Shown piece by piece: positions 6,701-55,339 of a DNA stretch of 55,339 nucleotides. The notes below the pieces were generated by a model. It did no database searches. It saw only the letters and a list, made by a program, of their open reading frames with translations, and was not told the origin of the DNA. How positions within the stretch are numbered: the first letter of the stretch is position 1; each line of letters begins with the position of its first letter. The DNA is taken from IMG/VR virus record IMGVR_UViG_3300024261_000039, positions 1 through 55,339 of that record; one strand, given 5' to 3'. A program made the position numbers and the translations under genes. Origin of the DNA: a virus (lineage: Duplodnaviria; Caudoviricetes).

Positions 6701-9700
6701 GAATATAATAACAACCCTAATAGTCTTCCTGAGCATATACAGAAGTTTGTTAAAGACCTGATCGCTCAAGTACGTCAGGCACTTATGGGCATGGGAGTTG
6801 AGTTGAAAAACTTATCCCCTGCTGACTTAAACGCCATGGCTATCGCGGCTATCAAGACACAAGGTGTTGAGACACAAGGCGATGGGGTTCTGGGTAGCAA
6901 CGAGTACCAAGGTAATGACCCGAAAGAGCGGGAAGAGTGGTTGGCATCTGAGGCTAAAGGCTTAGATATGTCTACACCTGCGAGAATGGCACGGGCTATC
7001 AAGATGGGGTACGACATTACCAAGCGTTGGTATCACGGTACTCCTGTTGTGTTTAACACCACTGATCCTAACAATCCCATTGGTATACATACGAAACACA
7101 CTACCGACCTAGCGGGTACTAAGTACACCGCTACTTATACTGAGGCTAGTCACCCCACCAATCCTGCGGGGCTAGAGACCTACGATCAGAATGGGTTAAC
7201 ATTCGCCTCCCCTGACCCAAGGCTTGCTCAAATCTTTGCCAAAGAGGATAGGGAAAACCCAAACATAATTCCTCTGTTCGTTAAGGCAGAGAAAACTTTT
7301 GATGGTAGGGATAAAGCCCAGAGAGAGGAACTATTCGCCCAACTGGTACTCGATCTACATGACACTGACTCTATCCAGTTTGCAAACTTTAAACGTGCTG
7401 GCAGATCAAATGAGCATCGTGGTTTGGGTGATCTTAGTGACAAGCACAACTGGTGGGGTGATGGTAGCCACAATGAGAAACTACAGGAAATCCTTGACGA
7501 TACTAACCACGAAAAGTATGCGTACCTTGTAGGTCGTATAGAGGGCTACCTTAAAAAGCAGATCGCAGGTATCCAAAACGGAGACTTTGTTCAGTTAGAG
7601 CAAGTATCTACCGTGGAGGCACTGAAGGAATTGGGGTATGACTCTCTGTATGTGTCTGAGGAACCAAACGTCAATATAGACCAACACGAATACACCACAG
7701 AGTACAAGAGTTTTGATACTAAAAACGAGGCAGACACATTCCTAGAAGAGCAACTGAAGGTATGGGAAGTCACCAAAGATAACCTAGTAGCTATAGCGGA
7801 TAGCTACAATTATATGTACCCCCACACATCTACTCAAAGTAGGATGGATGAGGCTCTTAGTGAGGCAGAGGAACTTAAACCAATACGTTTAGATAGCGGT
7901 GGGGAGTTTGAAGTCTCTTACCGTAAGAGATTGGAGGCGGAGCGTTCTGACCCACAATCCTCCCGCAACATTGCTGTCTTTGACCCGTCACAACTACGCT
8001 CACCTCATGCGGCTTTTGATACCGAGCGAGCGCAGAGTAATGACTTACTAGCAAGTCAAGCACCTATATCCACCTCAGAGGAATACCGCATGGAGCATAC
8101 CTCTTCAGCTAGGGGGGAGGGCAGATCAGCGGATGACCTGAGTAATGTATACCCTGATGATTTGTATACGCACGGGGTGCAGTATTACGGAACTGGGGAT
8201 GTAGGGGATCAAAATGCCATAGATATTTTGGCAGACTTGAAGGATAACCCTAATGGTATCGTGACAATCTACAGGGCTGTACCTCCTGACGTAGATGAAA
8301 TCAACCACGGGGATTGGGTAACTATAACTGAGAGTTATGCCCAAGAACATGGGGAGCGGCACATGGAACGAGAAGGATTCCATGTCATTAGCGAAGAGGT
8401 CAGAGCAAAAGACATCTTCACTGATGGGGATTCCTTACATGAGTGGGGATATCACCCCGCAACATTTGCCCCTATGGAGTCTGTGAAAGGTGATACAGAG
8501 TCAACGTCAGAGAAGAGTCAAGATGACTTCTTATTCTCTATCGCGCAGACTAACGACCCAGACGCTAATTCCGCAATGGGGAAGATGGGGCCAACCAATA
8601 CTCCAAAGAGTCCTAAAGACAGGTTAGAGAAGACTGCTAAGAACGTCAGAGGTTTCTTTACACGGCAGAATCTTGCTGATCAATACGACTCATTCAGACG
8701 TATAGGTGACAAGAAGACAAGTTGGATGTTGGCGCGGATGAGTAACCTTGGCTCTAACATTGTCGAGGGTGCTATCAAGATCGGGTCTCCTATCTTCCAC
8801 GAAGACGGCAGTGGTGGGATGACCTACAAAGCAGGGTCTAGAAGTCTGACTGACATACTCGCTCCACTACAGGGAGAGATAGATTACTTCTTAGCTTTCC
8901 GTGCTGGACACCGTGCTGAAGATTTTCTTAGGTCGGCAGAGGTTGGGAATGTTCAGGTTAATGACCTGACGTACACTATGAAGTTGGCGAAGAAGCGCAG
9001 AACCGCAATACGAAATGCTATCAAGAACCGAGTTAACCTGACACGGGCAGAGCGTAAATCCCTTATCGCAGAGGAAAAAGAAATAAACGCTCACCTCAAA
9101 GTTAAAAAAGCGGAACTCAAAGTAGCGAGGGAAAAAGCTAAATCAAAAGAGAAGTTATTCACCCCTGCTGAAGTACAGGCACTCAAGAATCTACCTGACA
9201 CATTGGAAGGTGACATAGGCGGTCGGTCAAGACGCGAGGTCTATGAAGAAGTAGCTAAAGAATTCGATGCCATGCATGAGGACTTTGTCCAACTTGGCGT
9301 TGACACAGGGTTGTTCAGTGAGCAACAGGCTCAAGAGTGGAGAGATGGTGGGGTGTACATCCCATTCCACAGGTTGAACGATGATGACGAGCAGACCAGT
9401 ATGCACTCACCGTCTGGGTTAACGAAGTTAACTGAGCAAGATGGGACACATACACTTAAAGGGTCTGAGAAAAATCTCGATGATCTGCTGACCAACGTGC
9501 TTATGAACTGGGCGCACATTACAGATGCGGCACTGCACAATCAAGCCGCAACATCTGTTACCCGCGATCTACATCAAGACGGTGGTATCGCCAAGGCTGA
9601 GATATTCCAAGGCAACAAGACACAATACGAAGAGGCTCAGAAAGACGAGAATAGATACGTGTACTGGGTACGGATGGGGGGTGAAAAGGTCTTAATTGAA

Positions 9701-12196
9701 CTGACTCCAAATCCAGATGACGATACTCAAGACAGTCTAGAAAAGGCTATGTTTGAAGTGGAAATGTTACACCAATCTCTAACAGGAATGGCCCATCTGG
9801 GGTACGCTGATCTCCTCACAAGCGTTGGTGGGGCGGCTAAACAATTACTCTCTAAGGGTGTCACCCTCAACCCAGCATTCAAAATACGAAATGTTATTAG
9901 GGATACCTTGACTGCGGTGGCTGTGGCTCCCATGAATCTCAACATCTTCAAGAATGCTTGGGCTGGGTACATGATTGCGAGAGATGCTGATAGCGAAACC
10001 AGAAAAGAAATGCAGTTTGGTGGAGGGGCTTTCTCCCACGGGTTCACCCGTGGCTCAGATGTGGAGGCTACAAAAGCCCTGATTGCGCGAGGTGTACCAC
10101 AAGAGAATATTCTGGACTCCCCGCAAAAAGTATTCGATAGGTTTAAGCAAGGTGCTGTTAACTTATATGAATGGTATGAGGAAGTGGGGTACAACTTAGA
10201 GAATGCCAACAGAGCCGCACAGTTTAAACAGTCGAAAGATAGGGGTGCTAATGCCTTAGAAAGAAACTTTGAAGCAAGAGATCATTTAGATTTTGGATCG
10301 CACGGTGCTAGTAAATTATTACGAGGCTTGACGCAAACGACAGCATTTTTGAACGCTAGGATACAAGGTCTCGACAAGTTAGCCAGAGCCTCTAGAGATA
10401 AGACTACAATCGAAGGCCGTCAGGTTCTTGACACTCAGCAGAAACAATTTTTTGCAATGGCCTCCGCGTATGTTGGCGTGTCCCTAGCCATGTGGTTCAT
10501 GATGAAAGATGACGAGGAGTACCAAAAACTCACGACTCATGAGAGAGCCACTTACCACGTTTTACGAGTTGGAGACTCTATGGTGTACATACCAAGAGCC
10601 TTTGAACTGGGGGCGGTCGCGGAGAGTGTTGAGCGGTTAACCGAGCAGGTATTCAAAGCACTAGAAGGTGAGGGGTTTGACGCTAAGTTTGTGGGTGAGC
10701 GGTTCTTACACCACCTAACCAGCACATTCAATTTTAATTTACCAACCGCCCTTGTGCCAGTGGTAGAAGTCGGGATTAACAAGAACTTCTTCACGGGTGG
10801 GGTGGTGGATAATACATCAGGGTTACGCGAAGACAGGACTAAGAGTACAACATCTAACTTAGCTAAGGCGGCTAGTTGGTTGTTCTCTCCAACGGGGGCT
10901 TTAGGACTTCCTCAAATGACGCCAATACAAGCAGACCACTTTATCCGTGGTTACACTGCTTGGTTTGGTACTACTGTAGCTGGGGTGGTGGACGCGGCAG
11001 TCAACCCAATGATGGAAGGTGCAGAGCCTGAGCCTTTTGATATACTCGACACTCCTGTTCTTAAAGATTTCATTAAAGAGATTGACGGGAAGTCTAGTAA
11101 CTTCTTTGTTGAGGAGTTCTACAAGCGTAGAGAACCTGCTAGGGAAATTGAAGGATCGCTACGGACAGTCCCAGAAGGTGACACTGAGCGTACAGAGGAG
11201 TTGCGCAAACTCGCAGAAGAGAAGGGGGTTGAGTTGTTCTCTGATGTAGGCAGGTCTATGGGTGAGATCAGAAAGGCTCTGAAAGAAAACAGAGCAGACA
11301 GGACTATCTCAGGAGAAGAAAGAGAGCGGGTACGGAAGGAATTGATTAACGAACGGAATCAAATAGCCAGAGAAATCTTTGAGGAAATTAAAGCGGTAGG
11401 TGAGGAAGACGAGGGGGAGGAAGAGAGTGAGAGCAGTGACTCATCTCTTCTTAACCTCATAGGTATAGGTGACGCCCACGCTGATGAAACGAAGGCCACG
11501 GGGGGTAGTGGTAAGTACATTGACCTGTCTCCAGAACCACTAACCCAAAAAGAACTACATGGTAAGAAAGGTAAAGGTCACGTTTTCTATGGGGCAGACG
11601 CTGTGGCTAAGGTTGAAGAGTTTGAAGGTGAGTTGCCACTAGCGGCCAGACGAGTTGTCGAACTTGAGGGTTTCGTAGATGTTCCTTATAAAGACCAGAA
11701 GGGTGTGGTGACCGCAGGTGTGGGGCAGACGGGAGACTTCATCCATCAGTCTTTTATGGACTCCTTTGAAGACCACGTTGACAGAGCGGAAGACAAAATT
11801 CCAAAGCTTAGAAAACTACCCGAAGCGTTACAAGCTGAACTTATCCAAGCTGAGTATCGGGGTGATCTTGGTCAGAGTCCTACGTTTGTGAAGTTGTTCA
11901 ACAACGGACAGTATAAACAGGCGGCCAAGGAATTCTTAGCCAACGATGAATATAAAGGGTACGTGGACGAGAGAGATAGTGGTGGTAAGACTAGTGGGAT
12001 CATCGCTAGGATGGAGGCCGTAAGCAAAGCTGTTAGTGACTACGCTGATAATAGTGGTAGTACCTATATCGTTAAGAAAGGAGATACCTTATTTAAAGTG
12101 GCTAAGAAATACAACCTATCAGTCCCTGAGTTGAAGAAGATGAACAACATCAAAGACGTATCTAAAATCAGGGTTGGTAAAAAGTTGAAAGTTTAA
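3725..12196 (+). CDS. Giant polyvalent ejection protein: zincin metallopeptidase-like, two ADP-ribosyltransferase-like domains, LPD38-like region, C-terminal lysozyme and LysM
   Basis: FLHEMLH...EEFLAY (~6480-6690); WYHGT...FASPDP...LGYDSL...IAVFDPSQLRS (~7028-8002); VTIYRAVP...GDWVT...EWGY (~8261-8452); ENANR...LDF...FLNARIQG...YIPRAFELG (~10200-10620); LEGFVDVPYKDQKGVVTAGVG (~11663-11725); YIVKKGDTLFKVAKKYNLSVPELKKMN (~12065-12193). Confidence 0.8.
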   Translation: MESKFGNQQEVDFDAMLSDIDAMLGETSEPSTVEASGGTVDFDTMLSDIDAMLAEPTTATSIEPRTEDRTWVGDMIDDKSSVYNQFNDAISNDFTKQITMGANAGFEGMLRTADTLFSDGVDGEYINRLKQNSRDVEDSLSEEQKTANRKEFFTDNPDGSWSVNSDAFLDFDKVTGVMAQGVGSLIPTMMGGGAIRGAGAIQVGGKSINKGINFLAGKVGATKTLTSRPKLREFLKKAGSKGLGFGASSTSMVVGGVSGDIQDHVRSMPIEILSKAPIYLEKRDELLDQGIPLAKAEIQAREEVALELGHWGMAKSAPLAMLLGTYAGRYIEDAFTSKVTGGLLKKSLIGLVVESGTEAGEGAQEQLVKNIQTQKVDPSVKTWQGVGESSVAEGLGGFGVAGGMSVAGGAVRKLGMKGADLRQREELLSQQLNQDGSTRVQDHLDEQLRQPQEQEQQSEEQVIFTEEDMAELQRLEAIVLEEERAELALSRHRESKRRQQEILNRSVSNLGGEVVSSEIDSAYQQVDTQNQEQVEAAYAQQERQGAGSPDSLEDLNTGATLATTLSDRAVNRFNSGIQQAEEHAIAEDEKSERLLSAIAKRDAILSKHPDFHGETLVFLDEIQESVQGEAVVKKIAEREITALNNAVDSLEALPKMTEQQGRLYEDAVELLDMGGMGVDIANTLTQRIQRTLPTTETVVEETEQVTEQVAETPHVGKVTRRFEGESSDGIHPPTVYTGAIDGIDVEIYQDELSGVWGYEDPSTGNLIDLSENEKYNYPKEAIKKLTTIVGDPTVDVDTLRKADVKIPSSKSKGFEVDEDPNDLDDLSFSTGEGQVSGETTETISSLLSSTYRKAKALLKNKEIVVVQSVADLPQAMQERGRANASLDVTKRVEGLYDPQTKTTFIVADQVSKETINKVFLHEMLHKALAENPKLKAKLEGNIGGLKKVFEQVESGEFSGANKKIYEAAMSRVDKANTSPEQRFEEFLAYIVTEYNNNPNSLPEHIQKFVKDLIAQVRQALMGMGVELKNLSPADLNAMAIAAIKTQGVETQGDGVLGSNEYQGNDPKEREEWLASEAKGLDMSTPARMARAIKMGYDITKRWYHGTPVVFNTTDPNNPIGIHTKHTTDLAGTKYTATYTEASHPTNPAGLETYDQNGLTFASPDPRLAQIFAKEDRENPNIIPLFVKAEKTFDGRDKAQREELFAQLVLDLHDTDSIQFANFKRAGRSNEHRGLGDLSDKHNWWGDGSHNEKLQEILDDTNHEKYAYLVGRIEGYLKKQIAGIQNGDFVQLEQVSTVEALKELGYDSLYVSEEPNVNIDQHEYTTEYKSFDTKNEADTFLEEQLKVWEVTKDNLVAIADSYNYMYPHTSTQSRMDEALSEAEELKPIRLDSGGEFEVSYRKRLEAERSDPQSSRNIAVFDPSQLRSPHAAFDTERAQSNDLLASQAPISTSEEYRMEHTSSARGEGRSADDLSNVYPDDLYTHGVQYYGTGDVGDQNAIDILADLKDNPNGIVTIYRAVPPDVDEINHGDWVTITESYAQEHGERHMEREGFHVISEEVRAKDIFTDGDSLHEWGYHPATFAPMESVKGDTESTSEKSQDDFLFSIAQTNDPDANSAMGKMGPTNTPKSPKDRLEKTAKNVRGFFTRQNLADQYDSFRRIGDKKTSWMLARMSNLGSNIVEGAIKIGSPIFHEDGSGGMTYKAGSRSLTDILAPLQGEIDYFLAFRAGHRAEDFLRSAEVGNVQVNDLTYTMKLAKKRRTAIRNAIKNRVNLTRAERKSLIAEEKEINAHLKVKKAELKVAREKAKSKEKLFTPAEVQALKNLPDTLEGDIGGRSRREVYEEVAKEFDAMHEDFVQLGVDTGLFSEQQAQEWRDGGVYIPFHRLNDDDEQTSMHSPSGLTKLTEQDGTHTLKGSEKNLDDLLTNVLMNWAHITDAALHNQAATSVTRDLHQDGGIAKAEIFQGNKTQYEEAQKDENRYVYWVRMGGEKVLIELTPNPDDDTQDSLEKAMFEVEMLHQSLTGMAHLGYADLLTSVGGAAKQLLSKGVTLNPAFKIRNVIRDTLTAVAVAPMNLNIFKNAWAGYMIARDADSETRKEMQFGGGAFSHGFTRGSDVEATKALIARGVPQENILDSPQKVFDRFKQGAVNLYEWYEEVGYNLENANRAAQFKQSKDRGANALERNFEARDHLDFGSHGASKLLRGLTQTTAFLNARIQGLDKLARASRDKTTIEGRQVLDTQQKQFFAMASAYVGVSLAMWFMMKDDEEYQKLTTHERATYHVLRVGDSMVYIPRAFELGAVAESVERLTEQVFKALEGEGFDAKFVGERFLHHLTSTFNFNLPTALVPVVEVGINKNFFTGGVVDNTSGLREDRTKSTTSNLAKAASWLFSPTGALGLPQMTPIQADHFIRGYTAWFGTTVAGVVDAAVNPMMEGAEPEPFDILDTPVLKDFIKEIDGKSSNFFVEEFYKRREPAREIEGSLRTVPEGDTERTEELRKLAEEKGVELFSDVGRSMGEIRKALKENRADRTISGEERERVRKELINERNQIAREIFEEIKAVGEEDEGEEESESSDSSLLNLIGIGDAHADETKATGGSGKYIDLSPEPLTQKELHGKKGKGHVFYGADAVAKVEEFEGELPLAARRVVELEGFVDVPYKDQKGVVTAGVGQTGDFIHQSFMDSFEDHVDRAEDKIPKLRKLPEALQAELIQAEYRGDLGQSPTFVKLFNNGQYKQAAKEFLANDEYKGYVDERDSGGKTSGIIARMEAVSKAVSDYADNSGSTYIVKKGDTLFKVAKKYNLSVPELKKMNNIKDVSKIRVGKKLKV

Positions 12197-30094: not shown

Positions 30095-30161
30095 TTGTTA
30101 AAAGTTCCTAGCAATTGCTAAGGCTTAACTAATGCTAAACCTTAGCAAATGATATGTCAAT
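30095..30161 (-). repeat. 67-bp direct repeat copy 1 (promoter + operator)
   Basis: Identical to 30745-30811; minus strand TTGACA-17-TAGCAT and palindrome TAGCAATTGCTA. Confidence 0.95.
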
Positions 30162-30744: not shown

Positions 30745-30811
30745 TTGTTAAAAGTTCCTAGCAATTGCTAAGGCTTAACTAATGCTAAACCTTAGCAAAT
30801 GATATGTCAAT
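30745..30811 (-). repeat. 67-bp direct repeat copy 2 (promoter + operator)
   Basis: Identical to 30095-30161. Confidence 0.95.
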
Positions 30812-30820
30812 AGCTAATAG

Positions 30821-34386: not shown

Positions 34387-34410
34387 TTTTAACTACCTGT
34401 GCGTGATAAT

Positions 34411-40896: not shown

Positions 40897-42365
40897 CCGT
40901 TCGTACTGAGACTTGGGCGTTAAAGGGAGGTTTGGATTTAGAATCTCCCGCGATGTCCATCCCTGCTGGCAGGGCTATCGTTGCTCAGAATTATGAAGCG
41001 GCAATGTCTGGTGGTTACAGGCGCATGGATGGGTACGAACTTTTCGATGGGTCAGCGACACCCTCCGTTGTCTCTGGGTCAGGGGATATTCTGGGTGTTT
41101 GGGAGTATGGTGGGGATGTTTACGCTTTCAGAAACAATACACTAGGAACTGCTTGTGTTATGCACAGGTCAACCTCAACTGGGTGGGTTGTTGTACCCAC
41201 TGGTCTTTTCCCTGTTCCTTCTGGTAAATTTGAATTTGTAAACCACAACTTTGCGGGGTCTTCTTCTACGGAGAAGATGTATGGGGTTGATGGGAAGAAT
41301 AACTGCTTTGAGTGGAATGGTACAGTATTCGCCAACATTTCCACGGGGATGACTACGGACACCCCCACTCATATAGGTGTTCATAAAAATCATTTATTTC
41401 TATCTTTTGAGGGTGGATCAATTCAACATTCTGGTGTTGGCGCACCCGCGTCTTGGACTCTAAATACTGGGGCTGGGGAGATAGGTATTGGTACTGAGAT
41501 TACCAACATTGACTCTATGCGAGGAAATGCCTTAGTCATAACTGGTTCTGACAGAATTAACATCCTGTACGGCACATCTTCTGCGGATTGGGACTTAAAA
41601 TCCTTCTCAACAGAGTTGGGAGTTGTTGCAAACACAACAGAGATTATTGACGCTGGGTTAGTGTGGTTCAACGGTAGAAATGTTACCCACATGAGTACAA
41701 CGCAATCATTTGGTGATTTTAATACCGCCTCTCTTTCCACTCGAGTCACTAAACTATTAAGTGTCCGACTCGATAAAGTTGTCGGGTCATCCGTTAATTA
41801 TAAGAAAAACCAATACCGATTATTTTTCAATGATAAGACAGTTGCCGTTGCGACAATCGTAAACAATAAGTTGTTGGGTTGGACTTCGTGGTTAATTCCT
41901 CATGTTCCGACTGCGGTGTCATCAGGATACATGGGTTGTACTGATGGTTCTGTCATGGCTCTGGACACGGGTACGTCTTTCAATGGTGCGACCATAGACT
42001 CATTTCTCCGTTTGGTGTTTAACTCATTTAAAACACCGCACAGACAGAAGCGATTTAGAAAACTACTTCTTGAAATGGAAGTTGGTAGTCAAGCGACTAT
42101 GCAAATGGTAGCTGATTATGGGTATGGTGTTGAGACCTCCTCGATTTCAGATCCTCTGACGGTTGCTGGTTCTGGGGGGTATTGGGATACCGTAGATTGG
42201 GCAGACTTCAACTGGTCTGCCACGATTGTCTCGCAGATGGAGGCTGTGCTTAATGGCTCTGGGAGAAATATGTCTGCTCTTATTTACCATACAAGTTCTA
42301 GTGATCCTTCCTTCACCGTTCAAGGAATTTCAGTTAATTATTCCATAAGGGGTTTAATTCGATGA
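40893..42365 (+). CDS. Tail nozzle / DNA stabilization protein (P22 gp10 / tubular protein B-like)
   Basis: Beta-rich 490 aa; GGLDL...N......GYRR.DG, HKNHLF, QYRLFF, KRFRK. Confidence 0.75.
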   Translation: MTVRTETWALKGGLDLESPAMSIPAGRAIVAQNYEAAMSGGYRRMDGYELFDGSATPSVVSGSGDILGVWEYGGDVYAFRNNTLGTACVMHRSTSTGWVVVPTGLFPVPSGKFEFVNHNFAGSSSTEKMYGVDGKNNCFEWNGTVFANISTGMTTDTPTHIGVHKNHLFLSFEGGSIQHSGVGAPASWTLNTGAGEIGIGTEITNIDSMRGNALVITGSDRINILYGTSSADWDLKSFSTELGVVANTTEIIDAGLVWFNGRNVTHMSTTQSFGDFNTASLSTRVTKLLSVRLDKVVGSSVNYKKNQYRLFFNDKTVAVATIVNNKLLGWTSWLIPHVPTAVSSGYMGCTDGSVMALDTGTSFNGATIDSFLRLVFNSFKTPHRQKRFRKLLLEMEVGSQATMQMVADYGYGVETSSISDPLTVAGSGGYWDTVDWADFNWSATIVSQMEAVLNGSGRNMSALIYHTSSSDPSFTVQGISVNYSIRGLIR

Positions 42366-45300
42366 GTAATTTTTATACCAAACCAACAGACCTCGTATCG
42401 GGTACTACGGCTAGGGCAAGTGATATAAATGACCGTGTAGATTCTGTTGAGTCTGGGTTTGATAGCGCGGAGTTAGTGACCATACGGTCAATAAAACTCC
42501 CTGTTGGAACGACAGCAGATCAGCTTATCACTGAGTCATCGGCTAATAGAGCAAGTAAAACTATTGGGTTCGATACATCTGGTGACTTGGTTCTTTACTC
42601 ACCGTATAACTGGCAGGGCGATTGGACAACTACCACTGAGTATGCTCTCCACGACACTGTTCGGGATGCCTCCACCAAGAATTTATATTTCTGTATGGTG
42701 GTTCACACCTCTGGTACTTTTGCCACAGACTTAGCGGCAAGTAAGTGGTCATTGGCAATCAATGTAGCTGATGTTGAGACTGCAAAAACTGCGGCAGAAA
42801 CTGCTCAAACAGCGGCAGAACTTGCAGAGACAAACGCAGAAACTGCTCAAACAGCGGCAGAACTTGCAGAGACAAACGCAGAAACTGCTCAAACAGCGGC
42901 AGAACTTGCAGAGACAAACGCCTCAACTTCTGCGTCAACAGCCACTACCCAAGCAACCACAGCCACTACCCAAGCAACAAACGCGGCAACTAGCGCAACT
43001 GCGGCATCGACTTCAGCAACAAATGCGGCAACTAGCGCAACTGCGGCATCGACTTCAGCAACAAATGCGGCAACTTCTGCGTCAACAGCAACTACCCAAG
43101 CAACAAATGCGGCAACTTCTGCGTCAACAGCAACTACCCAAGCAACAAATGCGGCAACTTCAGAGACAAACGCGGCAACTTCAGAGACAAACGCGGCAAC
43201 TTCAGCAACCACAGCTACTACCCAAGCAACAAACGCGGCAACTTCAGCAACCACAGCTACTACCCAAGCAACAAACGCCTCAACTAGCGCAACAAACGCC
43301 TCAACTAGCGCAACAAACGCCTCAACTTCAGAGACAAACGCCTCAACTGCAAAGACAGCGGCAGAAACCGCTCAAACAGCGGCAGAAACCGCAGAGACAA
43401 ATGCGGCAACTAGCGCAACTGCGGCATCGACTTCAGCAACTAACTCAGCAACTAGCGCAACTGCGTCATTAACTGCTCAAACAGCGGCAGAACTTGCAGA
43501 GACAAACGCAGAAACCGCAGAAACAAATGCGGCAACTTCAGCAACCAATGCCAACACAGCTAAATTAGCGGCAGAGGCGGCTCAGACTGCGGCAGAATTA
43601 GCGTCAGATACTTTTGAGGATACTTATCTAGGTGCTAAAGCCTCTAATCCAACTGTTGATAATGACGGTGACGCATTAACCACAGGCGATCTGTATTTCA
43701 ACACCACATCTGATGAGATGAGGGTGTACAACGGTACATCTTGGCAGACTGCCGCAGTATCTACTGCTTCCATGTTAGCACTGACAGGTGGTGCAATGAC
43801 GGGAGCGATAACAACTTCTTCCACGTTTGATGGTCGTGATGTTTCCGTAGATGGGACGAAGTTAGACGGTATAGAGACAAGCGCAACGGCAGACCAGACA
43901 GCAAGTGAAATAAAAACTGCTTATGAATCAAACGCAGATACTAATGAATTTAGCGATACAGAGCAAACTAAGTTAGCAGGCATAGCAACAAACGCAAATA
44001 ATTATTCACTTCCGTCATCGGTTGTCCATGACACTGAAAAAGGAGCATTACACGCAACAGACGCATTAAGAATTTCAGGTCACAGTGTACAATTACACAA
44101 AGGAGATGGTTCTTATGAATCCGTAACTGTACCTGATAATAACACCACTTACTCAAACGCCACTACAAGTTCTAGTGGGTTAATGTCCAATACGGATAAG
44201 AGTAAATTAGATGGTGTAGCAACAAACGCAAATAATTATTCACTGCCGTCATCGGTTGTTCACGACACTGAGAAAGGTGCATTACACGCAACAGACGCAT
44301 TAAGAATTTCTGGGCATACTGTACAGTTATATAAAGGGGATGGTAGTTCAGAATCAGTAACCGTACCTGATAATAACACCACTTACTCAAATGCCACTAC
44401 AAGTTCTAGTGGGCTAATGTCCAATACGGATAAGAGTAAGTTAGATGGTGTAGCAACAAGTGCAAACAACTACACCCACCCCGCTAATAATCATCTACCT
44501 TCAGGTGGTACTGTCGGACAAGTCCTGACGAATGTTTCTTCTGGTAACGGTAGTTGGGCAGACGCATCTGGTGGAGGGGGTATACTTTCTGGTATTGCCG
44601 CTGGTGGCATAACTGCGGGTGATCCAGTAGTTGTTAATGGTGCATCTCCGCAAGGCATCCACCCAGCGGGTACAGTTTCTTCAGCAATACCAACGGTATA
44701 CGCTAGGGATATGATGAGCGTTTTGGATCAGAATATAGACCCCAATTATATGCAATCCCACTACGTCACGTTATGCCCTCAAATAGACGCAGTAACCAAC
44801 CTACCTAATACCGTATTAATAGCCCACGCGGCTAGTAGTTATGGGATTGGTACTAGGTTTGTCGCGCGGGAGGGTGCAACCACTGGCACAGCGCAGGCGG
44901 GTGTTACTTACTCAACTAATGCTATGCTTATTGGGGATATGAAGTTCGTAAATACCAGCAAGTTTCCCAGTGATATTTCCTATTTCTTTTTCGTATATGG
45001 TGACTCTGGTAATAGCAACAAGCTGACGTTGAATTGGGGGAAAGTACAGGAGGTGTCAGGGTCAGGGACTGCTGACGCTATTTCGTTTGGGCAGACACCC
45101 GTTGTCGTAGATTCTACTTCGTTAGGTAATGAGACACGATTCGCTAGACTAATCCCCATGGCAGAACACGAACAGTCAAACGGACAGCCGCTAGTTCAAG
45201 TAGTAATTGCTTATTCGGTCAGTGGTCAAGCAAGATTTGTTAAAGCTGGTTTTTCCCTGTCAAACTACAACGAAATAAGCACCAGTACACAACCCACTAT

Positions 45301-47977
45301 ATCTACCTACTCCACAGGAAGTCATACTTTATACTCCCCCTACTATGGAGACAACTGGAATAGTATGACCTCTGTTGAGGGGGATGCCAGCAAGTTTATA
45401 GTAGGGTATACGGACAGCAGTTATGTATCGCGAGTTGTTTGCGGTTACTTAGGCGCGTCAGGCTCACCTGACCCACAGTCTTCGGTTATAACTATGGGAA
45501 CTCCTACCTTAGTCCAAGACCCAGCACCTTACTCAGGTAGTGCGTACCAATCAATCGCCCCGTCCATATCCAAGTGGCGGAGCGACCCTAATAAATTTCA
45601 CATGGGGTATGGGTCACCGTATCTACATTCTAACGGTAGCACTTACTGGGGTGGTATTAACATAGCTACACTAACTCTGACAGGGGTTTCAACACTAACA
45701 ATTTCTAATATAACTGACCTGTACGTGACACAAGGGACGGCTATTTCCTCTACCTACTCTATAGCAACTTTACCGTTTGATGATGATCGTCTTTTGATAG
45801 AGTACACAACTTCCGCTCACCAATCTTCTGGGTATATATTTCTCTCTCTGAGTGCGGGTGTATACACTGGTGAAACTCCCTATGTTATATCTACAGGATA
45901 CCCCGGTGCTAGATCAAACAATGCCAACGCCCCCCACGTTTTTTTAAAATCCCCAAACCACAGGATCGCTCAAGTGTGGGTTCGGGCAAACAATAGCACA
46001 CACTTCAGACTTCACGGAATGGACGTTGACCATCAACCTCTATCGGATGCTGGGGTCGTTGGTGTAGCGGCAGATACCAAGCTGAATGGGGAAGAGGTAG
46101 ACGTAGTTACTACCTCTGGCGTGGCTAGTGGATTAACTGGATTGGTTGCGGGATCAGATTACTACACCACTTTATCTGGAGTATTGTCAACGTCACCAGA
46201 CCCAGACAAAGAAATGTACACGGGTGTTGCTATGACTGCTACAGATTTGGCAGTCAGGGTTAACGCACCCCTACCAACCACCAATATGGTTAAAGATGTT
46301 GACTCGTCTTCGCTCCCTGTCTTGGGAGGCTCACCGTTATTTATTAACTCTAGCGGTACAGTGTCGGCAGTCGGGCTAACTACGAACACAACTACAAACA
46401 TTACTCAGGACGAGTATGTAGATAATGCGGCTTCAGTCTATAGTGATACGTATGCTCACGGAGCATCGTCTGTTGATGGTACATTTGCTGTGACTGTTAG
46501 TCTTGATAGTACCAACAATTTAATGTTGTATCTTTGGGAAATAGCTGGGGATAACCTCGTATCTCAAGGTTCTGTGGTGTTGGACTCCACTCCAACTACT
46601 AATCAGGTATTCCCAAGTCCAGCTATTTATGAAGATGACCCTACCAACACCTCCATCCAGAAGACCGTTTTAGTTTTGTGGGGTGGGTCTGGGGTTAGCT
46701 ATAAAATGTATGGTATGGCTCTTCGGATAGATACGAGTACCTATACGGTGGATGTTACAGGTGCAAAGACCTACCTAGATGGGGGGAGTTGGCATCGCGG
46801 GGCTTCAAACCTTGAGTTTGCTCCCACTACTGGCTTATTTGTATCCCAGAGTATTAGATACTCTGGTAGTTATCAAGACGCCCATTTAGTATGTGAGGTG
46901 AGTAATCACCAAACACTAGCTTTAACTAAGTTAAGTGTTACAAACTCTCCTGAACCAAGTGTCGATAGTTGGTGGTATACCCACACTCTAAAGTTCCTTC
47001 CTAACGACCCTACTAGATACATAGCATCGTGGAAAGAAATGACGCAAGGGGGTCATGTCCCATCAGTATTCCAACCCACAGCAGTTTGCACAGTAAACCA
47101 CACAACTGGAGTGGTTACTTTCGGGACTCTCTTGCCTATATCTGAGGGGAATACTATCCCACCTCTATCCCCATATAGCCAAACCTTCTTTGAGCATTAT
47201 GCTAAACATCCTCAAATCTCTTTCATCACGGACACTAAGTTCGTTATGACGTACACAGCAACCACAAGTTCTGGAACTCTCTATGGTCAGGTAACAGTTG
47301 TTGTAGGAGAGGTCAGCGGTACGTCTTGGACTTCACTTTCTAGGAAGGTGGTTAATTATATGGATGGTTCAAATACTAGTGTGTACGGCAATAACGCTCA
47401 AAATACTGAACACATGATTAACCCTAACCCTACAACTGACAAAGAACTCCTTGTGTCTTTCTATACCTCCAGTGGTACGTGCTACCACGCTAGACGGGTG
47501 ACTATAGACTCATCAAATAACATTACAACTTACACTGATAATAACGTGGACACCTATAGCGTAGGGGTTGGCGATTGGCACTCTCACGCTGGGTGGAAAA
47601 TGAAAGATACCTATGTAAGTTCTTCCGAGTTAAATTACTGGAGTAGCAAACGCTATGTAAATTCCAGTACGAGCAGATTGGTTTTTCAACAGTATAATCC
47701 TAGTAGTGGGGATTACAAATGGAAATCCTTTCTTTGGGGTGAGCAGACAACTAATCTGACCGCATCCACACCTATAGTTGGTACAGCACTCAAACCTCCA
47801 GTTTCTGGTAGGGTGGAGATACTGACTTCTGGCTCTGAAGACAAGAATCAATCTGGGCTAACTACGGGGTCACTGGTTTACCCAACTGCTACTGGGAGCG
47901 TTTCACACAACAACCCACTTAGTGTTTCATCTTTAGGTCTAGCTACTTCATCAACTTCAATTTTATTAAAAGGTTAA
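42362..47977 (+). CDS. Tail fibre / receptor-binding protein
   Basis: Ala/Thr coiled-coil repeats, YLGAKASNPTVDNDGDAL..GDLYFN, GLMS..DKSKLDGV repeats, beta-rich distal region. Confidence 0.88.
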   Translation: MSNFYTKPTDLVSGTTARASDINDRVDSVESGFDSAELVTIRSIKLPVGTTADQLITESSANRASKTIGFDTSGDLVLYSPYNWQGDWTTTTEYALHDTVRDASTKNLYFCMVVHTSGTFATDLAASKWSLAINVADVETAKTAAETAQTAAELAETNAETAQTAAELAETNAETAQTAAELAETNASTSASTATTQATTATTQATNAATSATAASTSATNAATSATAASTSATNAATSASTATTQATNAATSASTATTQATNAATSETNAATSETNAATSATTATTQATNAATSATTATTQATNASTSATNASTSATNASTSETNASTAKTAAETAQTAAETAETNAATSATAASTSATNSATSATASLTAQTAAELAETNAETAETNAATSATNANTAKLAAEAAQTAAELASDTFEDTYLGAKASNPTVDNDGDALTTGDLYFNTTSDEMRVYNGTSWQTAAVSTASMLALTGGAMTGAITTSSTFDGRDVSVDGTKLDGIETSATADQTASEIKTAYESNADTNEFSDTEQTKLAGIATNANNYSLPSSVVHDTEKGALHATDALRISGHSVQLHKGDGSYESVTVPDNNTTYSNATTSSSGLMSNTDKSKLDGVATNANNYSLPSSVVHDTEKGALHATDALRISGHTVQLYKGDGSSESVTVPDNNTTYSNATTSSSGLMSNTDKSKLDGVATSANNYTHPANNHLPSGGTVGQVLTNVSSGNGSWADASGGGGILSGIAAGGITAGDPVVVNGASPQGIHPAGTVSSAIPTVYARDMMSVLDQNIDPNYMQSHYVTLCPQIDAVTNLPNTVLIAHAASSYGIGTRFVAREGATTGTAQAGVTYSTNAMLIGDMKFVNTSKFPSDISYFFFVYGDSGNSNKLTLNWGKVQEVSGSGTADAISFGQTPVVVDSTSLGNETRFARLIPMAEHEQSNGQPLVQVVIAYSVSGQARFVKAGFSLSNYNEISTSTQPTISTYSTGSHTLYSPYYGDNWNSMTSVEGDASKFIVGYTDSSYVSRVVCGYLGASGSPDPQSSVITMGTPTLVQDPAPYSGSAYQSIAPSISKWRSDPNKFHMGYGSPYLHSNGSTYWGGINIATLTLTGVSTLTISNITDLYVTQGTAISSTYSIATLPFDDDRLLIEYTTSAHQSSGYIFLSLSAGVYTGETPYVISTGYPGARSNNANAPHVFLKSPNHRIAQVWVRANNSTHFRLHGMDVDHQPLSDAGVVGVAADTKLNGEEVDVVTTSGVASGLTGLVAGSDYYTTLSGVLSTSPDPDKEMYTGVAMTATDLAVRVNAPLPTTNMVKDVDSSSLPVLGGSPLFINSSGTVSAVGLTTNTTTNITQDEYVDNAASVYSDTYAHGASSVDGTFAVTVSLDSTNNLMLYLWEIAGDNLVSQGSVVLDSTPTTNQVFPSPAIYEDDPTNTSIQKTVLVLWGGSGVSYKMYGMALRIDTSTYTVDVTGAKTYLDGGSWHRGASNLEFAPTTGLFVSQSIRYSGSYQDAHLVCEVSNHQTLALTKLSVTNSPEPSVDSWWYTHTLKFLPNDPTRYIASWKEMTQGGHVPSVFQPTAVCTVNHTTGVVTFGTLLPISEGNTIPPLSPYSQTFFEHYAKHPQISFITDTKFVMTYTATTSSGTLYGQVTVVVGEVSGTSWTSLSRKVVNYMDGSNTSVYGNNAQNTEHMINPNPTTDKELLVSFYTSSGTCYHARRVTIDSSNNITTYTDNNVDTYSVGVGDWHSHAGWKMKDTYVSSSELNYWSSKRYVNSSTSRLVFQQYNPSSGDYKWKSFLWGEQTTNLTASTPIVGTALKPPVSGRVEILTSGSEDKNQSGLTTGSLVYPTATGSVSHNNPLSVSSLGLATSSTSILLKG
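42775..43600 (+). repeat. Ala/Thr/Ser heptad repeats (21/42-nt units) in the tail fibre
   Basis: Repeated AETAQTAAELAETN and ATSATTATTQATNA units. Confidence 0.9.
43985..44452 (+). repeat. Tandem 234-nt (78-aa) duplication in the tail fibre
   Basis: Units start at 43985 and 44219, with a third partial unit at 44453; near-identical protein with synonymous changes. Confidence 0.92.
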
Positions 47978-48268: not shown

Positions 48269-48712
48269 ATGCTGGCTGAACTTGCTATTGCCAATGCCGC
48301 GTTTGAGGTCATAAGAACCGCGGTATCTAACGGTAAGGAGATTTTTGAGTTAGGCGATCACCTAGCTAAGTTCTCAGACGCTGGTCGGGAAATTGACCAC
48401 AAAGCAAAGTTAGCTAAAAAGGGGTCGGAGCAAGAGTCTGACCTAGAAATATTCATGGCGCAAGAAGCCATGAGGAACAAACGAGAACAACTCAAAGAAC
48501 TGATGATACGGACTCGCCATCTCATGTGGGACGACTTCCTCCGGTTCGAAGGACAACAACAGAAAGCACGACTTAAAGCACAGCGTGATGAAGAGCGTCA
48601 GAAAGAAGAACGAACAGATTTCATTATGACTTGTGTTGCTTGGATTGTAGCCTTCTTTATCCTCGCAGGATCACTGGTTGGTGGGCTTAAATTAATTATT
48701 GGGATGAAGTAA
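48269..48712 (+). CDS. Hypothetical protein with C-terminal TM helix
   Basis: MLAELAIANAAF N-terminus, coiled coil, hydrophobic C-terminus. Confidence 0.7.
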   Translation: MLAELAIANAAFEVIRTAVSNGKEIFELGDHLAKFSDAGREIDHKAKLAKKGSEQESDLEIFMAQEAMRNKREQLKELMIRTRHLMWDDFLRFEGQQQKARLKAQRDEERQKEERTDFIMTCVAWIVAFFILAGSLVGGLKLIIGMK

Positions 48713-50578: not shown

Positions 50579-53500
50579 ATGTCAATCTGGGATTGGGATT
50601 TGGATTTATCATTCGGATATTCAAGTGATGCCGATACTAACTCTGACACTTCTGATTGGAATTTCACCACCCTCACTGATTCTATTTATGAGGGTGCAAG
50701 TGACATTTACGATTATGTAACACCGTGGGAAAGTTCATACGATAGTCCAGAGTACGTTTATGACCCTTATACCACAGACCCTATACAAGATGCTATAGAC
50801 TCTGGGACATACATTCCTCCAGAAGATATATCCGCAGAGGGTGAATACATAGGTAGTGACCCTGTATTTATGGGTGAGGGGTACACACCGCCAGCGAAAT
50901 TCACGACAGGCATTGAAGGGATGGGGTATACCTTCCCAGAAGAGTACACCCCAGAACACCTAGCGGAGACTAATACCCTATGGAATTTCGACCCTCATGG
51001 GGATGATGTCACTGACTATCTTCTGCTAGATAAGATAAATACTTGGCAAGATGAGGGTAAGACTGCTAAAGAGATACTAGAGATTGCGAATGAGTATTGG
51101 ATTGAGGATGCTCGAATAGCTGATTTGTATGGTATTGAGACGTCTGAACTGGAGTCTTTTATGGACTCCAATGCCAGATTTTGGGAAAACGTAGACAAGG
51201 ATACAGGTCAGGCATTTCTTGGTAGTCAGGGAAATGTAACTTTTTTGAATGGAGTCTTTAAATTAAATTGGGATGACTCACTGTTTACTGGTGTTGATAC
51301 AGATGGAACAGTATATGTAGATGGTAAGTACAGCAACCAAGACAACAACCTCCTATCTGATAGGTGGTATGACATTTCTCAGAAGTTTGCAGGGGTGGAC
51401 ATACTAGCCTCTACTGCTGGGATTATCTACGATTCTGTTAACACCAATCAAAATGTTAATTTTGAATCTCTAGGGGATATTGTAGAGGATAACGATCTTC
51501 TGCGTAGTGTGTTAAACACTTTGCTTACAGCCGAGGCTGGCGTTGGAGTGGCTTTGGATGTAGCATCTATAGGTCTCTCTGGCGAGAAGGTCGCTGGTCA
51601 TTTAGCCGATATAATCTATAATGGTGATGACAATGTTAGAGCCAAGATAGCCGACCACTTAGACAACCTGACTTTGGGTGAGTTTTCAGAAGGTCTTATT
51701 AAGATAATTGATGCTGTGTCTGGAGTTCCATCCATGTCCTTGGCTTTAGATGCCAGTAAGACTGTCTCCAGTATGACTTATTATTGGATAACAGGGGCGC
51801 AGGATGAGGATGAGGGAGGACTTCCAAAGAATCCATTTACGTTTGTTCCTACCACTGTACTAAGCATTGAAGAGTCTAAGCATTTCTCTGAGTCAAATTT
51901 TGGGTTGTTACAGGAAGATGGTAGCACCCGCCCTTTTACACCTATACCAGATGAGCCTCCTATATCTGCTGAGTATGTTCCCGCAGAACCAGTTTATCCC
52001 GACCAACCCGCTATACCCTCTATACCACCTGTCCCAGTTGCGGATAAAACATTTGATGACCTACTCGTTGATTTTGAGTCTGCCCTTGCCGAAAAGGGCT
52101 TAACCGCTACAGACCCTACTGGAACTGCCATAGCGTTCGATAAGGATATTTTGAAAAACATATCCTTATATCAAGGAGCGCAAGCGACATATAAAGGTAA
52201 TGTTTATGATATGGGTATGGGTCAGAACCGTGTTAACGGCAATGTTGTATCTAACTATGTCTCTTCGTATCGTACTGCCGCTGACCCAGACACTTACCAT
52301 AAAACTATACTGAATGTTGGTAAGGTTGCTGGGGAAGTCTTTGGTCAATACTGGAAAGATTTAACAGGTATGGAATTAATGGTCAGTAAGGAAACCACAC
52401 CTGACTATTTTAGCTCTTCAATTTATTCTAACAACAATTATTACTTCACAGATAGTGCTAGGGATGGGTTGTTTGAAAAGTGGGAAGGGTACATAGGTGC
52501 TGGGGTTAATGGGTACACCCACGGCATGACCATGAATTGGGACGCGATTAATGCTGAACAGCAAACTTGGGACTATAATGGATACCCTGCCAGTATAGAT
52601 ACAAAAACTACCGAGTCCGAAGCTGAGTTTACCCAGTTGACAAAGGCGTTTGACGATGCTTTAGAGTATGAAAATAACTACCCTAGCTTGGTGGCGGAGC
52701 ATTCGGTTGCTGTTACTAATATAGACCTTGACTATGATGCATCCATACTTGAGGGAATTGACAATTGGCACTCAGACTCTCTGTACAGGGATTATACAAC
52801 TGAGGTAAGTGTGGCAAATGACCTCAACTCCAATGATATTGGGGTGTCAGAGTCAGCTATACCAGACTACACAACCAATGAGGAAGGTAGATTTGTCCTA
52901 GTACCGCCAATAGAAGGTGAGTCCCAGCCGCCCAACACGCTGATGGCAGTTCATAAAGGGGCTGATGGTAAATATTCTTACTCTTATGAGCCAGACACAC
53001 TTACCTCCCCAGATAGTAAGTGGGAAAGTTCTGACTTCCCTATGCTATCTACGATGGTGGGTGCGGATGTAACTCAGGTTGTTGTGGATGTGGCAAACAA
53101 TATTGCCCATTTAGTAAACTCAGCGGGGGAATTAGCAGGGACACTATTGACCCGTGATATGGGTCAATATTTCAAAGGGTTAGACCAGTATGTGTACCCC
53201 TCAGATATGAATAAAATAGACCCATCCTCTGACTCTATCCTAATGGTTAATTTGGAAGGTGGCGAAGCTACCGCTGATCTAGATCGGTGGAATGTTATTA
53301 TTGATCAGTTGAGTCTTGGGGAGTCAGTTATAGTAACCCCTAAAAGTATAGCGTCTTCCACAGTAGATGCAGAAAATAACGCGGCAACCACAGCCAAGAA
53401 TAACGCTAATGAGATAGTACAGGGTAAGGCACAAGATCGACTGGACGAGGCTATAGCCAAGAGAGAAGAGGATGTAGAGGCTGAGAAAGCCGAATATGAT

Positions 53501-55339
53501 AGGGTTGTAAAATCTGTTGATGAAACAAACGCGAGTAACACAGCGACATATAATAGCCGAAAAGCCGAGGTTGATAGTGCAAACGCGAGTAACACAGCGA
53601 CATACAACGCTGGTAAAGTCGCGGTTGACGCACATAACACTCAACAACAAACAAATCACAATAATAACAAACTCAATTACGATTATTGGTGGCGTGAGTA
53701 CGGCAGTAAATCTGAATATAGCCATATATCCCCGCCACTGCCCATTTCAACCTCTCCCTATCAAAGTTACCCAGCCGCACCTACCACAATAGCGTACCCA
53801 GCCGCACCTACCACAATAGCGTACTCACAAGAAATATTAGACAGGACAGATTCGGATGGCAACTTCAAAACTTCCGTTCCTAACGTCACTACTAACCTGT
53901 CTGCGTACACCTCTGGGGATGAGAAAACAGCGGAGTATATAGCCCAGCACTCTATAGAGATTGATGTAGAAGTGGGCAAAATTTTAGAGAACTCCTCCAG
54001 TGCTGTGTCACCTGATGCGGCTGACTTAGTATCGTCTGAGGCAACTATAAAATTCTTAGAGACTCAACTATCCCATGTGAATAGTGGTGCAACTATCGAA
54101 CAGTCGAAGTCCGAGATAGCTACGCTTGAGAAAGAGTTGAGTTATTTGAAGGGCGGGGAATTATATAAGCATGAGGACATTACCTATACCAAAACCCTAT
54201 TTGACGAAGATTTAAACTCGACCAAAACTACCGAGACTCTGCCAGCTAACCTTTATACTAAAGACGAACTTACAGCTAAGATAGCTGAGATCAACAACAG
54301 TCTTGGCGAGATGGGGTTTACAGACTTAATGAGGAAACTCCAAGACTCCAGAGTAACATCTACTGAGGCTGGGTTTGCACTCGATGGTAAGAATGTCTTT
54401 AATCGGACGGTTGAAGAAGAGAAAACCTACCAAGCTGACAAGTTAGTACAACAACGAGACCAATTTTTCGCTGGGCTAAAAAAAGACGAAGAAATAACCT
54501 CTCTATCTAGAGAGGTAGATTGGCTAGAAGATGACTTAGCTACGTTACCATCGTGGATGGACGGTACTTCATACAGACCAGACCCCTCTAAGCCTGTAAT
54601 CAGTAAATTTCGCATACAAGAAGAAGATAGACTGAGGGAATCTTTGTTAGACCCCGCCCTTACTGCGGAGGAAAGGAAAGCCCTAGAAGATCAGCTAGCT
54701 TGGGTGCAGACTACTACAATAGATAGTAATAGTGATGGGGTTATAGATGCTAGGGATGCACTAGCCATACTGCACTCAATATCCCCTTCATATAGTAGTA
54801 GTCTAACTCCTGAAGAGAGAGCGGAAGTATACAAAGAACTTCTCCGTACACGCGATTTTAACTATGATGGTAGGATTACCATTAACGATGCCCTTACAGC
54901 ACTCAGGCACTCTGCTGGACTAGAGCCTTTAGTATCTGACGATCAGTTATACAACATTAGGGGAGAAAATAAGGCGGGACTCCCACCATTGGCTGGGTCT
55001 CTAGCTGATACTTTATTAAAGAAGAATGAGGAACTAGCCAGTTTACAGGCTACGGTCGAGGCTGGGTTGTCTTCCGATGAAGACCTAGAAAAGATCAAGT
55101 CTCTTACTGCTTCAGTAGAGTACCTTGAGGGTAAGACCTTCAGGAATCCAGACGGTTCTATTCCTGACGCTACTGCTGAAGGTTATGACGCTAGTAAGAC
55201 CTATAACATACATGGCTTTAACCCAAGTGGTCTGAACTCAGAAGGCAAATCTCAAGAAGATTTAAATAAAGAGTCAGCAGACACACAATCAGGGATAATA
55301 AGTAGTGCAGTTTCAACTGCTACTGACCCACTAGACAAG
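50579..55339 (+). CDS. Giant acidic virion/ejection protein with dockerin-like repeat (open at window end; missing from ORF track)
   Basis: ATG at 50579 after TAAGGGA; I found no in-frame stop in 1587 codons (MSIWDWDLDLSFG...TDPLDK); shares repeats with 2-1036. Confidence 0.88.
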   Translation, partial: MSIWDWDLDLSFGYSSDADTNSDTSDWNFTTLTDSIYEGASDIYDYVTPWESSYDSPEYVYDPYTTDPIQDAIDSGTYIPPEDISAEGEYIGSDPVFMGEGYTPPAKFTTGIEGMGYTFPEEYTPEHLAETNTLWNFDPHGDDVTDYLLLDKINTWQDEGKTAKEILEIANEYWIEDARIADLYGIETSELESFMDSNARFWENVDKDTGQAFLGSQGNVTFLNGVFKLNWDDSLFTGVDTDGTVYVDGKYSNQDNNLLSDRWYDISQKFAGVDILASTAGIIYDSVNTNQNVNFESLGDIVEDNDLLRSVLNTLLTAEAGVGVALDVASIGLSGEKVAGHLADIIYNGDDNVRAKIADHLDNLTLGEFSEGLIKIIDAVSGVPSMSLALDASKTVSSMTYYWITGAQDEDEGGLPKNPFTFVPTTVLSIEESKHFSESNFGLLQEDGSTRPFTPIPDEPPISAEYVPAEPVYPDQPAIPSIPPVPVADKTFDDLLVDFESALAEKGLTATDPTGTAIAFDKDILKNISLYQGAQATYKGNVYDMGMGQNRVNGNVVSNYVSSYRTAADPDTYHKTILNVGKVAGEVFGQYWKDLTGMELMVSKETTPDYFSSSIYSNNNYYFTDSARDGLFEKWEGYIGAGVNGYTHGMTMNWDAINAEQQTWDYNGYPASIDTKTTESEAEFTQLTKAFDDALEYENNYPSLVAEHSVAVTNIDLDYDASILEGIDNWHSDSLYRDYTTEVSVANDLNSNDIGVSESAIPDYTTNEEGRFVLVPPIEGESQPPNTLMAVHKGADGKYSYSYEPDTLTSPDSKWESSDFPMLSTMVGADVTQVVVDVANNIAHLVNSAGELAGTLLTRDMGQYFKGLDQYVYPSDMNKIDPSSDSILMVNLEGGEATADLDRWNVIIDQLSLGESVIVTPKSIASSTVDAENNAATTAKNNANEIVQGKAQDRLDEAIAKREEDVEAEKAEYDRVVKSVDETNASNTATYNSRKAEVDSANASNTATYNAGKVAVDAHNTQQQTNHNNNKLNYDYWWREYGSKSEYSHISPPLPISTSPYQSYPAAPTTIAYPAAPTTIAYSQEILDRTDSDGNFKTSVPNVTTNLSAYTSGDEKTAEYIAQHSIEIDVEVGKILENSSSAVSPDAADLVSSEATIKFLETQLSHVNSGATIEQSKSEIATLEKELSYLKGGELYKHEDITYTKTLFDEDLNSTKTTETLPANLYTKDELTAKIAEINNSLGEMGFTDLMRKLQDSRVTSTEAGFALDGKNVFNRTVEEEKTYQADKLVQQRDQFFAGLKKDEEITSLSREVDWLEDDLATLPSWMDGTSYRPDPSKPVISKFRIQEEDRLRESLLDPALTAEERKALEDQLAWVQTTTIDSNSDGVIDARDALAILHSISPSYSSSLTPEERAEVYKELLRTRDFNYDGRITINDALTALRHSAGLEPLVSDDQLYNIRGENKAGLPPLAGSLADTLLKKNEELASLQATVEAGLSSDEDLEKIKSLTASVEYLEGKTFRNPDGSIPDATAEGYDASKTYNIHGFNPSGLNSEGKSQEDLNKESADTQSGIISSAVSTATDPLDK

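Follow-up and report, generated by a model that had tools for sequence, protein, structure and literature searches.

Why would a virus of seawater carry what looks like a dockerin, and what could such a module do on a virion? Dockerins are plugs that fix enzymes onto cohesin sockets, and the question is raised by the viral record IMGVR_UViG_3300024261_000039, analysed here over its whole length of 55,339 nucleotides (nt) and called the window below. Near its end the window encodes two tandem Ca2+ loops within a large protein of 1931 amino acid residues (aa). According to our analysis, residues 1382-1448 of this module-bearing protein are very probably a real Ca2+-binding module of the dockerin type.

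The plus strand at 54722-54922 translates into two DxNxDGxIxxxD-AL loop-helix units that are 44 residues (132 nt) apart and in frame with an open reading frame (ORF) at 50579-55339. Both 12-residue loops have Asp1, Asn3, Asp5, Gly6, Ile8 and Asp12, followed by Ala-Leu and a helix-prone stretch. The module is laid out as follows.

54665..54721, plus strand: predicted incoming helix before loop 1 (aa 1363-1381), from the AlphaFold2 models (helix 4-22 of a 101-aa piece)
54722..54757, plus strand: Ca2+ loop 1 (aa 1382-1393) with D1, N3, D5, G6, I8, D9 and D12, from the pattern and Pfam
54749..54778, plus strand: predicted helix after loop 1 (aa 1391-1400), from the AlphaFold2 model (helix 32-41)
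54782..54853, plus strand: 24-residue linker, a Ser-rich stretch followed by a predicted helix (aa 1411-1425), from the alignment and the AlphaFold2 model
54854..54889, plus strand: Ca2+ loop 2 (aa 1426-1437) with D1, N3, D5, G6, I8, T9 and D12, from the pattern and Pfam
54881..54913, plus strand: predicted helix after loop 2 (aa 1435-1445), from the AlphaFold2 model (helix 76-86)

The original prediction had quoted two strings at this place, 44 residues apart, and both were found exactly in the translation. The strict pattern D.[ND].DG.[IVL]...D[AVILM]L had two matches in the six frames of the window, both in the module, and none in 200 nucleotide shuffles of the window. When the residues of the 1587-aa ORF were shuffled 5000 times, none of the shuffles had two or more matches to a looser loop pattern.

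The Dockerin_1 profile (PF00404, Pfam gathering cut-off 22.9 bits) scored 33.5 bits (E 5e-8) on a 117-aa piece, 28.2 bits on a 67-aa piece and 25.5 bits, also above the cut-off, in a six-frame search of the record. EF-hand_7 (PF13499), which belongs to the same Pfam clan, gave 27.9 and 23.3 bits on the same two pieces and 19.8 bits on the 1587-aa ORF, all below its cut-off of 30 bits. The canonical EF-hand rule is Glu at loop position 12, whereas both phage loops have Asp there; Asp at position 12, Asn at position 3 and an Asp-Ala-Leu helix start are features of the dockerin consensus. Like type I dockerins, the module has tandem 12-residue Ca2+ loops with D/N at positions 1, 3 and 5, Asp12, Gly6 and a hydrophobic residue at position 8, and a helix after each loop. 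Unlike them, it adds one helix in the linker and another before loop 1; type I dockerins are also cellulosomal, whereas the phage module is internal in a 1931-aa protein without a known cohesin partner. Two traits are EF-hand-like, the helix predicted before each loop and the length of the linker. The EF3-EF4 pairs of the neuronal calcium sensors hippocalcin and neurocalcin likewise repeat the helix-loop-helix unit across a long linker; the sensors are cytosolic, in contrast to the module-bearing protein, which is viral and probably extracellular. The dockerin-type loops, with Asp12 and the DAL..L helix, bear out the earlier reading of a dockerin-type tandem Ca2+ loop-helix pair. Ca2+ binding by the module is suggested by the motif, the families and the predicted fold.

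A single-sequence AlphaFold model of 136 residues had a predicted local distance difference test score (pLDDT) of 58.8, which is weak; in each loop it placed a short strand at positions 7-9, flanked by helices. A second model, whose alignment was seeded with seven dockerins from marine gammaproteobacterial genomes, reached a pLDDT of 73.1; helices 4-22 and 52-66 preceded the loops, with the same placement in the single-sequence model, and the helices after both loops were present in both. In a Foldseek search with the dockerin-seeded model the top eight rows were dockerins (probability 0.80-0.98, E 0.14-1.0). When this model was aligned structurally with 48,161 PDB chains, the top 13 were all dockerins (Z 7.8-3.9) and the first unrelated chain had Z 3.4. 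The dockerin 4dh2_D had a root-mean-square deviation of 2.2 Å over 65 of 70 residues; type I dockerins such as 4dh2_D, 3ul4_B and 2ccl_B superposed at Z 6.8-7.8, and 2ozn_B at Z 4.8. The modelling thus shows that the module sequence is compatible with a dockerin fold, although the assignment is not unbiased.

Several results weigh against this assignment. The dockerin matches are partly built in, because the alignment of the model was seeded with dockerins, and with neither model did Foldseek give a match at E<=0.001; the single-sequence model gave weak EF-hand rows only (E>=0.12). On the whole 1587-aa ORF, Dockerin_1 scored 21.4 bits, slightly below its cut-off. In an unbiased phmmer search of PDB sequences the top rank went to hippocalcin EF3-EF4 (E 2e-4, 24.9 bits), and dockerins followed at E 0.12-0.36. 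When residues 388-1587 were compared by HMMER with 1.84 billion representatives, three proteins only were found at E<=0.001, and all three were multi-EF-hand proteins (E 2.7e-8) aligned on residues 1361-1457. The loop spacing is 44 residues in the phage module versus 30 in the seven marine bacterial dockerins, in an alignment with which the linker carries a 13-residue insertion; type I dockerin loops are about 30-36 residues apart, in a compact module of about 60-70 aa.

The gene that carries the module lies in two parts at the ends of the record.

50579..55339, plus strand: first 1587 codons of the 1931-aa gene, 3'-open at the record end; 100% identical to a 1931-aa protein
2..1036, plus strand: last 344 codons and stop of the same gene, 5'-open at the record start (1587 + 344 = 1931)

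The 1931-aa protein, from a 55,380-nt contig, was identical over the ORF and continued into the ORF at the window start, and base 1 of the record repeats its last base. Because the gene spans both record ends, the record is a circularly permuted genome; IMG/VR classes it as linear and 95% complete. The protein is very acidic (isoelectric point 4.2; 17.1% Asp+Glu versus 6.9% Lys+Arg), lacks Cys, has internal repeats and is without a hydrophobic segment. Among 5.8 billion proteins the whole protein matched only its own three-sequence cluster, one member of which is 111 residues longer (2042 aa), and so did the module in an extended search. PHROGs had no match to the module, NCBIfam gave a single row at E 0.032, and tblastn of the protein and the module against 50,697 phage records gave none or chance rows only. 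Scans of IMG/VR and JGI metagenome peptides found no relative, the ESM Atlas gave no usable match, and promoter and terminator scans around the gene stayed at the level of shuffled sequence. The copy number of a C-terminal repeat varies at 55119-55339 and 2-350, and two runs have contigs in which 55339 leads back to 55119 by way of 28 other letters. Two of the copies, at 55193-55267 and 272-346, are 85% identical and probably broke the assembly at the record ends.

The phage, a marine podovirus akin to HMO-2011 and vB_Pun_Y3, is temperate and carries the module gene in its late operon. It has genes for an integrase, a repressor-like protein, a primase-helicase, a family A DNA polymerase, a terminase, an SU10-type portal and a capsid protein, and no tRNA genes. 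The portal shares 38.7% identity with its counterpart in Pseudoalteromonas phage vB_Pun_Y3 and about 27-35% with those of the other listed phages, including HMO-2011-type ones. From the portal onwards the order is scaffold, capsid, two tail-tube-like genes, an 1871-aa tail fibre and three small ORFs, then the module gene, a 145-aa ORF, three ORFs of 192-328 aa and a 2823-aa protein. The landmarks are given here.

42362..47977, plus strand: 1871-aa tail-fibre gene (phrog_38058 and other tail-fibre families)
48269..48712, plus strand: 147-aa ORF with homologues near loop-bearing IMG/VR ORFs
1014..1451, plus strand: 145-aa ORF at the position of internal virion protein (IVP) A, the start of the IVP cassette; homologous to the GNAT acetyltransferase of vB_Pun_Y3 (E 7e-10)
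3725..12196, plus strand: 2823-aa polyvalent protein directly before the integrase (LPD38, ParB-C-like PHROG match, lysozyme and LysM, from PHROG and Pfam)

In passages of Hardies et al. (PMC4819975), an acetyltransferase-family IVP-A is the first gene of the podovirus IVP operon. The 145-aa ORF had no direct Pfam match, and its vB_Pun_Y3 homologue, at the same place, matched Acetyltransf_1 with 25.1 bits. The 2823-aa protein is likely the large ejected protein that closes the cassette. The module gene ends at 1036 and the IVP-A homologue starts at 1014, so that the former lies just outside the cassette, on its tail-fibre side. The earlier label of an ejection protein was therefore not supported as worded: the gene is upstream of the IVP-A homologue and downstream of the tail fibre. 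Since it stands between these two, a tail appendage is likelier than an ejected core protein, and the module-bearing protein is most likely an exposed tail appendage. Gene order is the sole basis of this placement, which counts against it, and the protein had no PHROG, Pfam, NCBIfam or PDB family match outside the module, where Dockerin_1 and EF-hand_7 match. Only the position in the tail region and the internal repeats point to a tail-fibre nature; searches of Pfam, PHROG, NCBIfam and PDB found neither tail-fibre family homology nor hallmark domains in the protein. The tail-fibre gene itself contains about 15 tandem repeats of 21 or 42 nt at 42781-43600.

Natural variation of the gene was found in metagenomes, and all runs that hold it are seawater or marine. 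At least half of its sampled words are present in eight runs, three of which are a possible source of the record; with these left out, five runs from four studies hold at least 58% of the words. Four runs, each of a different study (X4, X6, X7 and X8 of the 21 listed), gave contigs that differed from the window by 19 single letters in the gene, in 18 codons, and all 19 were nonsynonymous. For random changes 22% would be expected to be synonymous, and none among 19 has a probability of about 0.008 (for this gene only). Seven of the differences are linked in a second allele, found in two runs of different studies.

54830..54935, plus strand: second allele with seven linked nonsynonymous differences

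These changes (Y1418D, F1427Y, I1435V, T1440I, A1446V, V1452I and S1453A) fall within 106 nt, and the second allele coexists with the window allele in one run. Loop positions 1, 3, 5, 6, 8 and 12 are unchanged, and unit 1 is without any change. The pattern marks the module-bearing protein as fast-evolving and probably host-facing, and it hints at diversifying selection. The selection reading, which covers this one gene, stays a hint, not proof; against it, the seven changes are mostly conservative replacements (I/V, F/Y, A/V, S/A) that may be close to neutral. A second cluster of six changes lies at 50939-51004, in the acidic N-terminal part. A diversity-generating retroelement was considered and rejected: the changes are not adenine-specific, and there is no reverse transcriptase among the annotated ORFs.

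Similar loops recur in other viruses. A degenerate DNA pattern for a loop followed by Asp-Ala-Leu matched at least 118 stretches in IMG/VR, and the details that follow rest on the 80 loci listed. In 65 the match is in frame (3 with an internal stop), and 37 lie in open frames of at least 500 aa. A second loop occurs 20-60 residues away in only 7 of the 65, with spacings that include 34, 39, 42 and 60, and the other 58 are single. There are 49 distinct ORFs of at least 350 aa, which belong to several unrelated families (largest cluster 10 of 49). Beyond the loops they have no detectable homology to the module-bearing protein, with a single weak BLASTP match among the 49. When 27 of them were scanned against PHROGs and Pfam, 7 matched tail or virion PHROGs, 2 matched families of unknown function and 18 matched nothing; Pfam found Dockerin_1 in five, Peptidase_S74 in two, collagen in two and Phage-tail_3 in one. 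The single unit (L/M)-Q-Y-D-x-N-x-D-G-(R/K)-I-T-S-x-D-A-L recurs in large, mostly orphan viral ORFs, at loci that include L053, L057, L058, L075, L086, L090, L097, L113, L118 and L126. Homologues of the 147-aa ORF are near loop-bearing ORFs at 4 of the 80 loci (3 adjacent, 1 about 4 kb away), and one such locus also has a homologue of a tail-tube-like gene. In BFVD, structural rows for uncultured-phage proteins named 'Dockerin type 1' (A0A8S5M688, A0A8S5UCJ3 and A0A8S5NQH0 in UniProt/BFVD) stood at ranks 3, 6 and 16, and no row had E<=0.001. These proteins and the IMG/VR ORFs resemble the window module in carrying dockerin-type loop-helix units in phage proteins, several with tail-fibre hallmarks, but they are mostly single units and uncharacterised, whereas the window module is a pair.

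The original prediction knew of no characterised phage example. This stands for the literature searched, in which no paper (supplementary files lay outside the search) characterises a phage dockerin; the module is less of an exception than implied, since similar loops recur in uncultured phages. An excerpt of one study (ISME J 2026, PMC13452462) reports dockerin domains on a putative archaeal-virus contig. Two apparent precedents were rejected. In a passage of PMC3558961 gp40 of Vibrio phage VvAW1 is likened to a 'dockerin type I cellulosome protein', but Pfam gave an SASA esterase and no Dockerin_1; in the relevant part of PMC5967307 'dockerin' is the template of a carbohydrate-binding module.

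What the module does is a more tentative matter. With a little less than even confidence, we propose a Ca2+-gated step that arms or locks an exposed appendage after release into seawater. The virion would be assembled in the Ca2+-poor cytoplasm with the module empty and loose. After lysis, the Ca2+ of seawater, at about 10 mM, would fill both loops; pairing of the loops and packing of the helices would give a compact knot like that of a dockerin, by which this part of the appendage would be locked, or 'armed'. The face of the folded helices might then serve as a Ca2+-dependent attachment surface. Both the arming step and any partner are putative. If there is arming only, the module would be an example of environment-gated virion arming in Ca2+-rich seawater.

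The best of the alternatives, though an unlikely one, is that the module is a true dockerin that plugs into a cohesin on the host surface, such as a PEP-CTERM-sorted anchor, for receptor binding or pre-adsorption, with variation in unit 2 tuning specificity. Dockerin-type loops with their helix signature would suit it, as would the superposition of the dockerin-seeded model on dockerins solved in complex with cohesin. So would the 19 nonsynonymous differences, one of them at loop position 10, a specificity position of dockerins. Sockets of the required kind were looked for in candidate hosts. Relatives of the portal, 31-49% identical in the best segment, came from 17 gamma-, 7 alpha- and 1 betaproteobacterial records and 1 labelled Saccharibacteria. 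Five genomes were picked from the 26 with related prophages (two Rheinheimera, one Paraglaciecola, one Paraferrimonas and one Halomonas), and the cohesin profile PF00963 was above cut-off in three of them and Dockerin_1 in four. In two of the five (G002 and G004) a gene for a secreted nuclease with a terminal dockerin is followed by a small gene whose product (172 or 197 aa) combines a cohesin domain with a signal peptide and a PEP-CTERM-like tail, the features of a surface-sorted cohesin in these marine gammaproteobacteria.

These two-gene units lie at 5898-10859 of locus L045 (G002) and 5834-8966 of locus L046 (G004). Their nucleases have a lamin-tail domain and Exo_endo_phos, plus Endonuclease I in G002, and end in two dockerin-type loops 30 residues apart (Dockerin_1 20.2 bits, below cut-off, in G002 only). 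The literature search found no paper with PEP-CTERM, cohesin and dockerin together. The units belong to bacterial groups with prophages related to this phage, and they and the C. perfringens NagH/NagJ pair (PDB 2ozn) have, as does the phage, dockerin-type loops outside cellulose degradation. These non-cellulosomal dockerins, however, are C-terminal, with a spacing of 30, a terminal Cys pair and an adjacent cohesin gene, and the phage module has none of these features.

Suitable cohesin sockets thus occur in the right kind of bacteria but are uncommon: in an even sample of 401 genomes of the order, cohesin was above cut-off in four. The scarcity tells against host docking. The same 401 genomes gave three weak matches to the phage module (E 0.003-0.005) and no close relative of it. 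The module is moreover internal, flanked by helices and built with a long linker, and the 58 single loops found in frame in IMG/VR cannot form a canonical dockerin. A complex predicted from the module, the mature G002 cohesin and two Ca ions scored 0.13 (mark 0.34), which leaves binding neither supported nor opposed; the cohesin served as a substitute, from a genome that is not known to be the host's. If docking were true, it would be a new class of phage receptor interaction, in which a bacterial plug-and-socket display is exploited as a receptor class, and it would explain why the motif recurs in tail-fibre-like genes of many uncultured phages. We regard the fullest version, in which the Ca2+-loaded dockerin is a receptor plug on a host cohesin anchor, the unit 2 alleles retune the fit and the loops of other phages play the same trick, as rather improbable.

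Arming of an exposed appendage also has to be set against an ejected or internal protein with a Ca2+ switch, which would be packed in the head and whose module would loosen on Ca2+ loss at entry so that the chain could thread the tail. The module gene adjoins the IVP cassette, and its product is huge and Cys-free like its 2823-aa neighbour; large size and closeness to the cassette are likewise shared with the T7-type IVP-B, -C and -D. Those proteins, however, are encoded within the cassette after IVP-A, whereas the module gene precedes the IVP-A homologue, and the cassette is already complete in its small and giant members. The module-bearing protein also had no PHROG match at E<=0.001, the IVP-B, -C and -D families included, and no similarity to any IVP family. 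We consider such a switch quite improbable.

It is very doubtful that the module is an assembly plug, fastening its protein to a virion component whose cohesin-like beta-sandwich is unrecognisable by sequence. In its favour, the protein is encoded among tail genes, and cohesin-dockerin pairs are high-affinity assembly devices according to passages of PMC12484212. Against it, the phage itself gave no match to PF00963 at E<=10 in six frames and no cohesin at E<=0.01 when 28 ORFs were searched with Pfam, in agreement with the original prediction, which had seen no cohesin in this genome; and the loops were found at none of 28 related phage and prophage loci (L004-L031; for the prophages these extend no further than 10 kb beyond the portal).

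A generic EF-hand pair unrelated to dockerins, or a functionless decaying remnant, is hardly to be expected, for although unbiased searches rank EF-hand proteins first and EF-hand_7 comes near its cut-off at 27.9 bits, Asp12 is present in both loops, Dockerin_1 outscores EF-hand_7, all ligand positions are intact in every run compared and the gene recurs in seawater metagenomes (5 runs, 4 studies).

Two further observations concern other parts of the window. A gene for an HNH endonuclease lies between the terminase and portal genes, at 34399-34941. Two 72-nt direct repeats, 99% identical, at 30095-30166 and 30745-30816, flank a minus-strand ORF of 189 aa (30157-30726).

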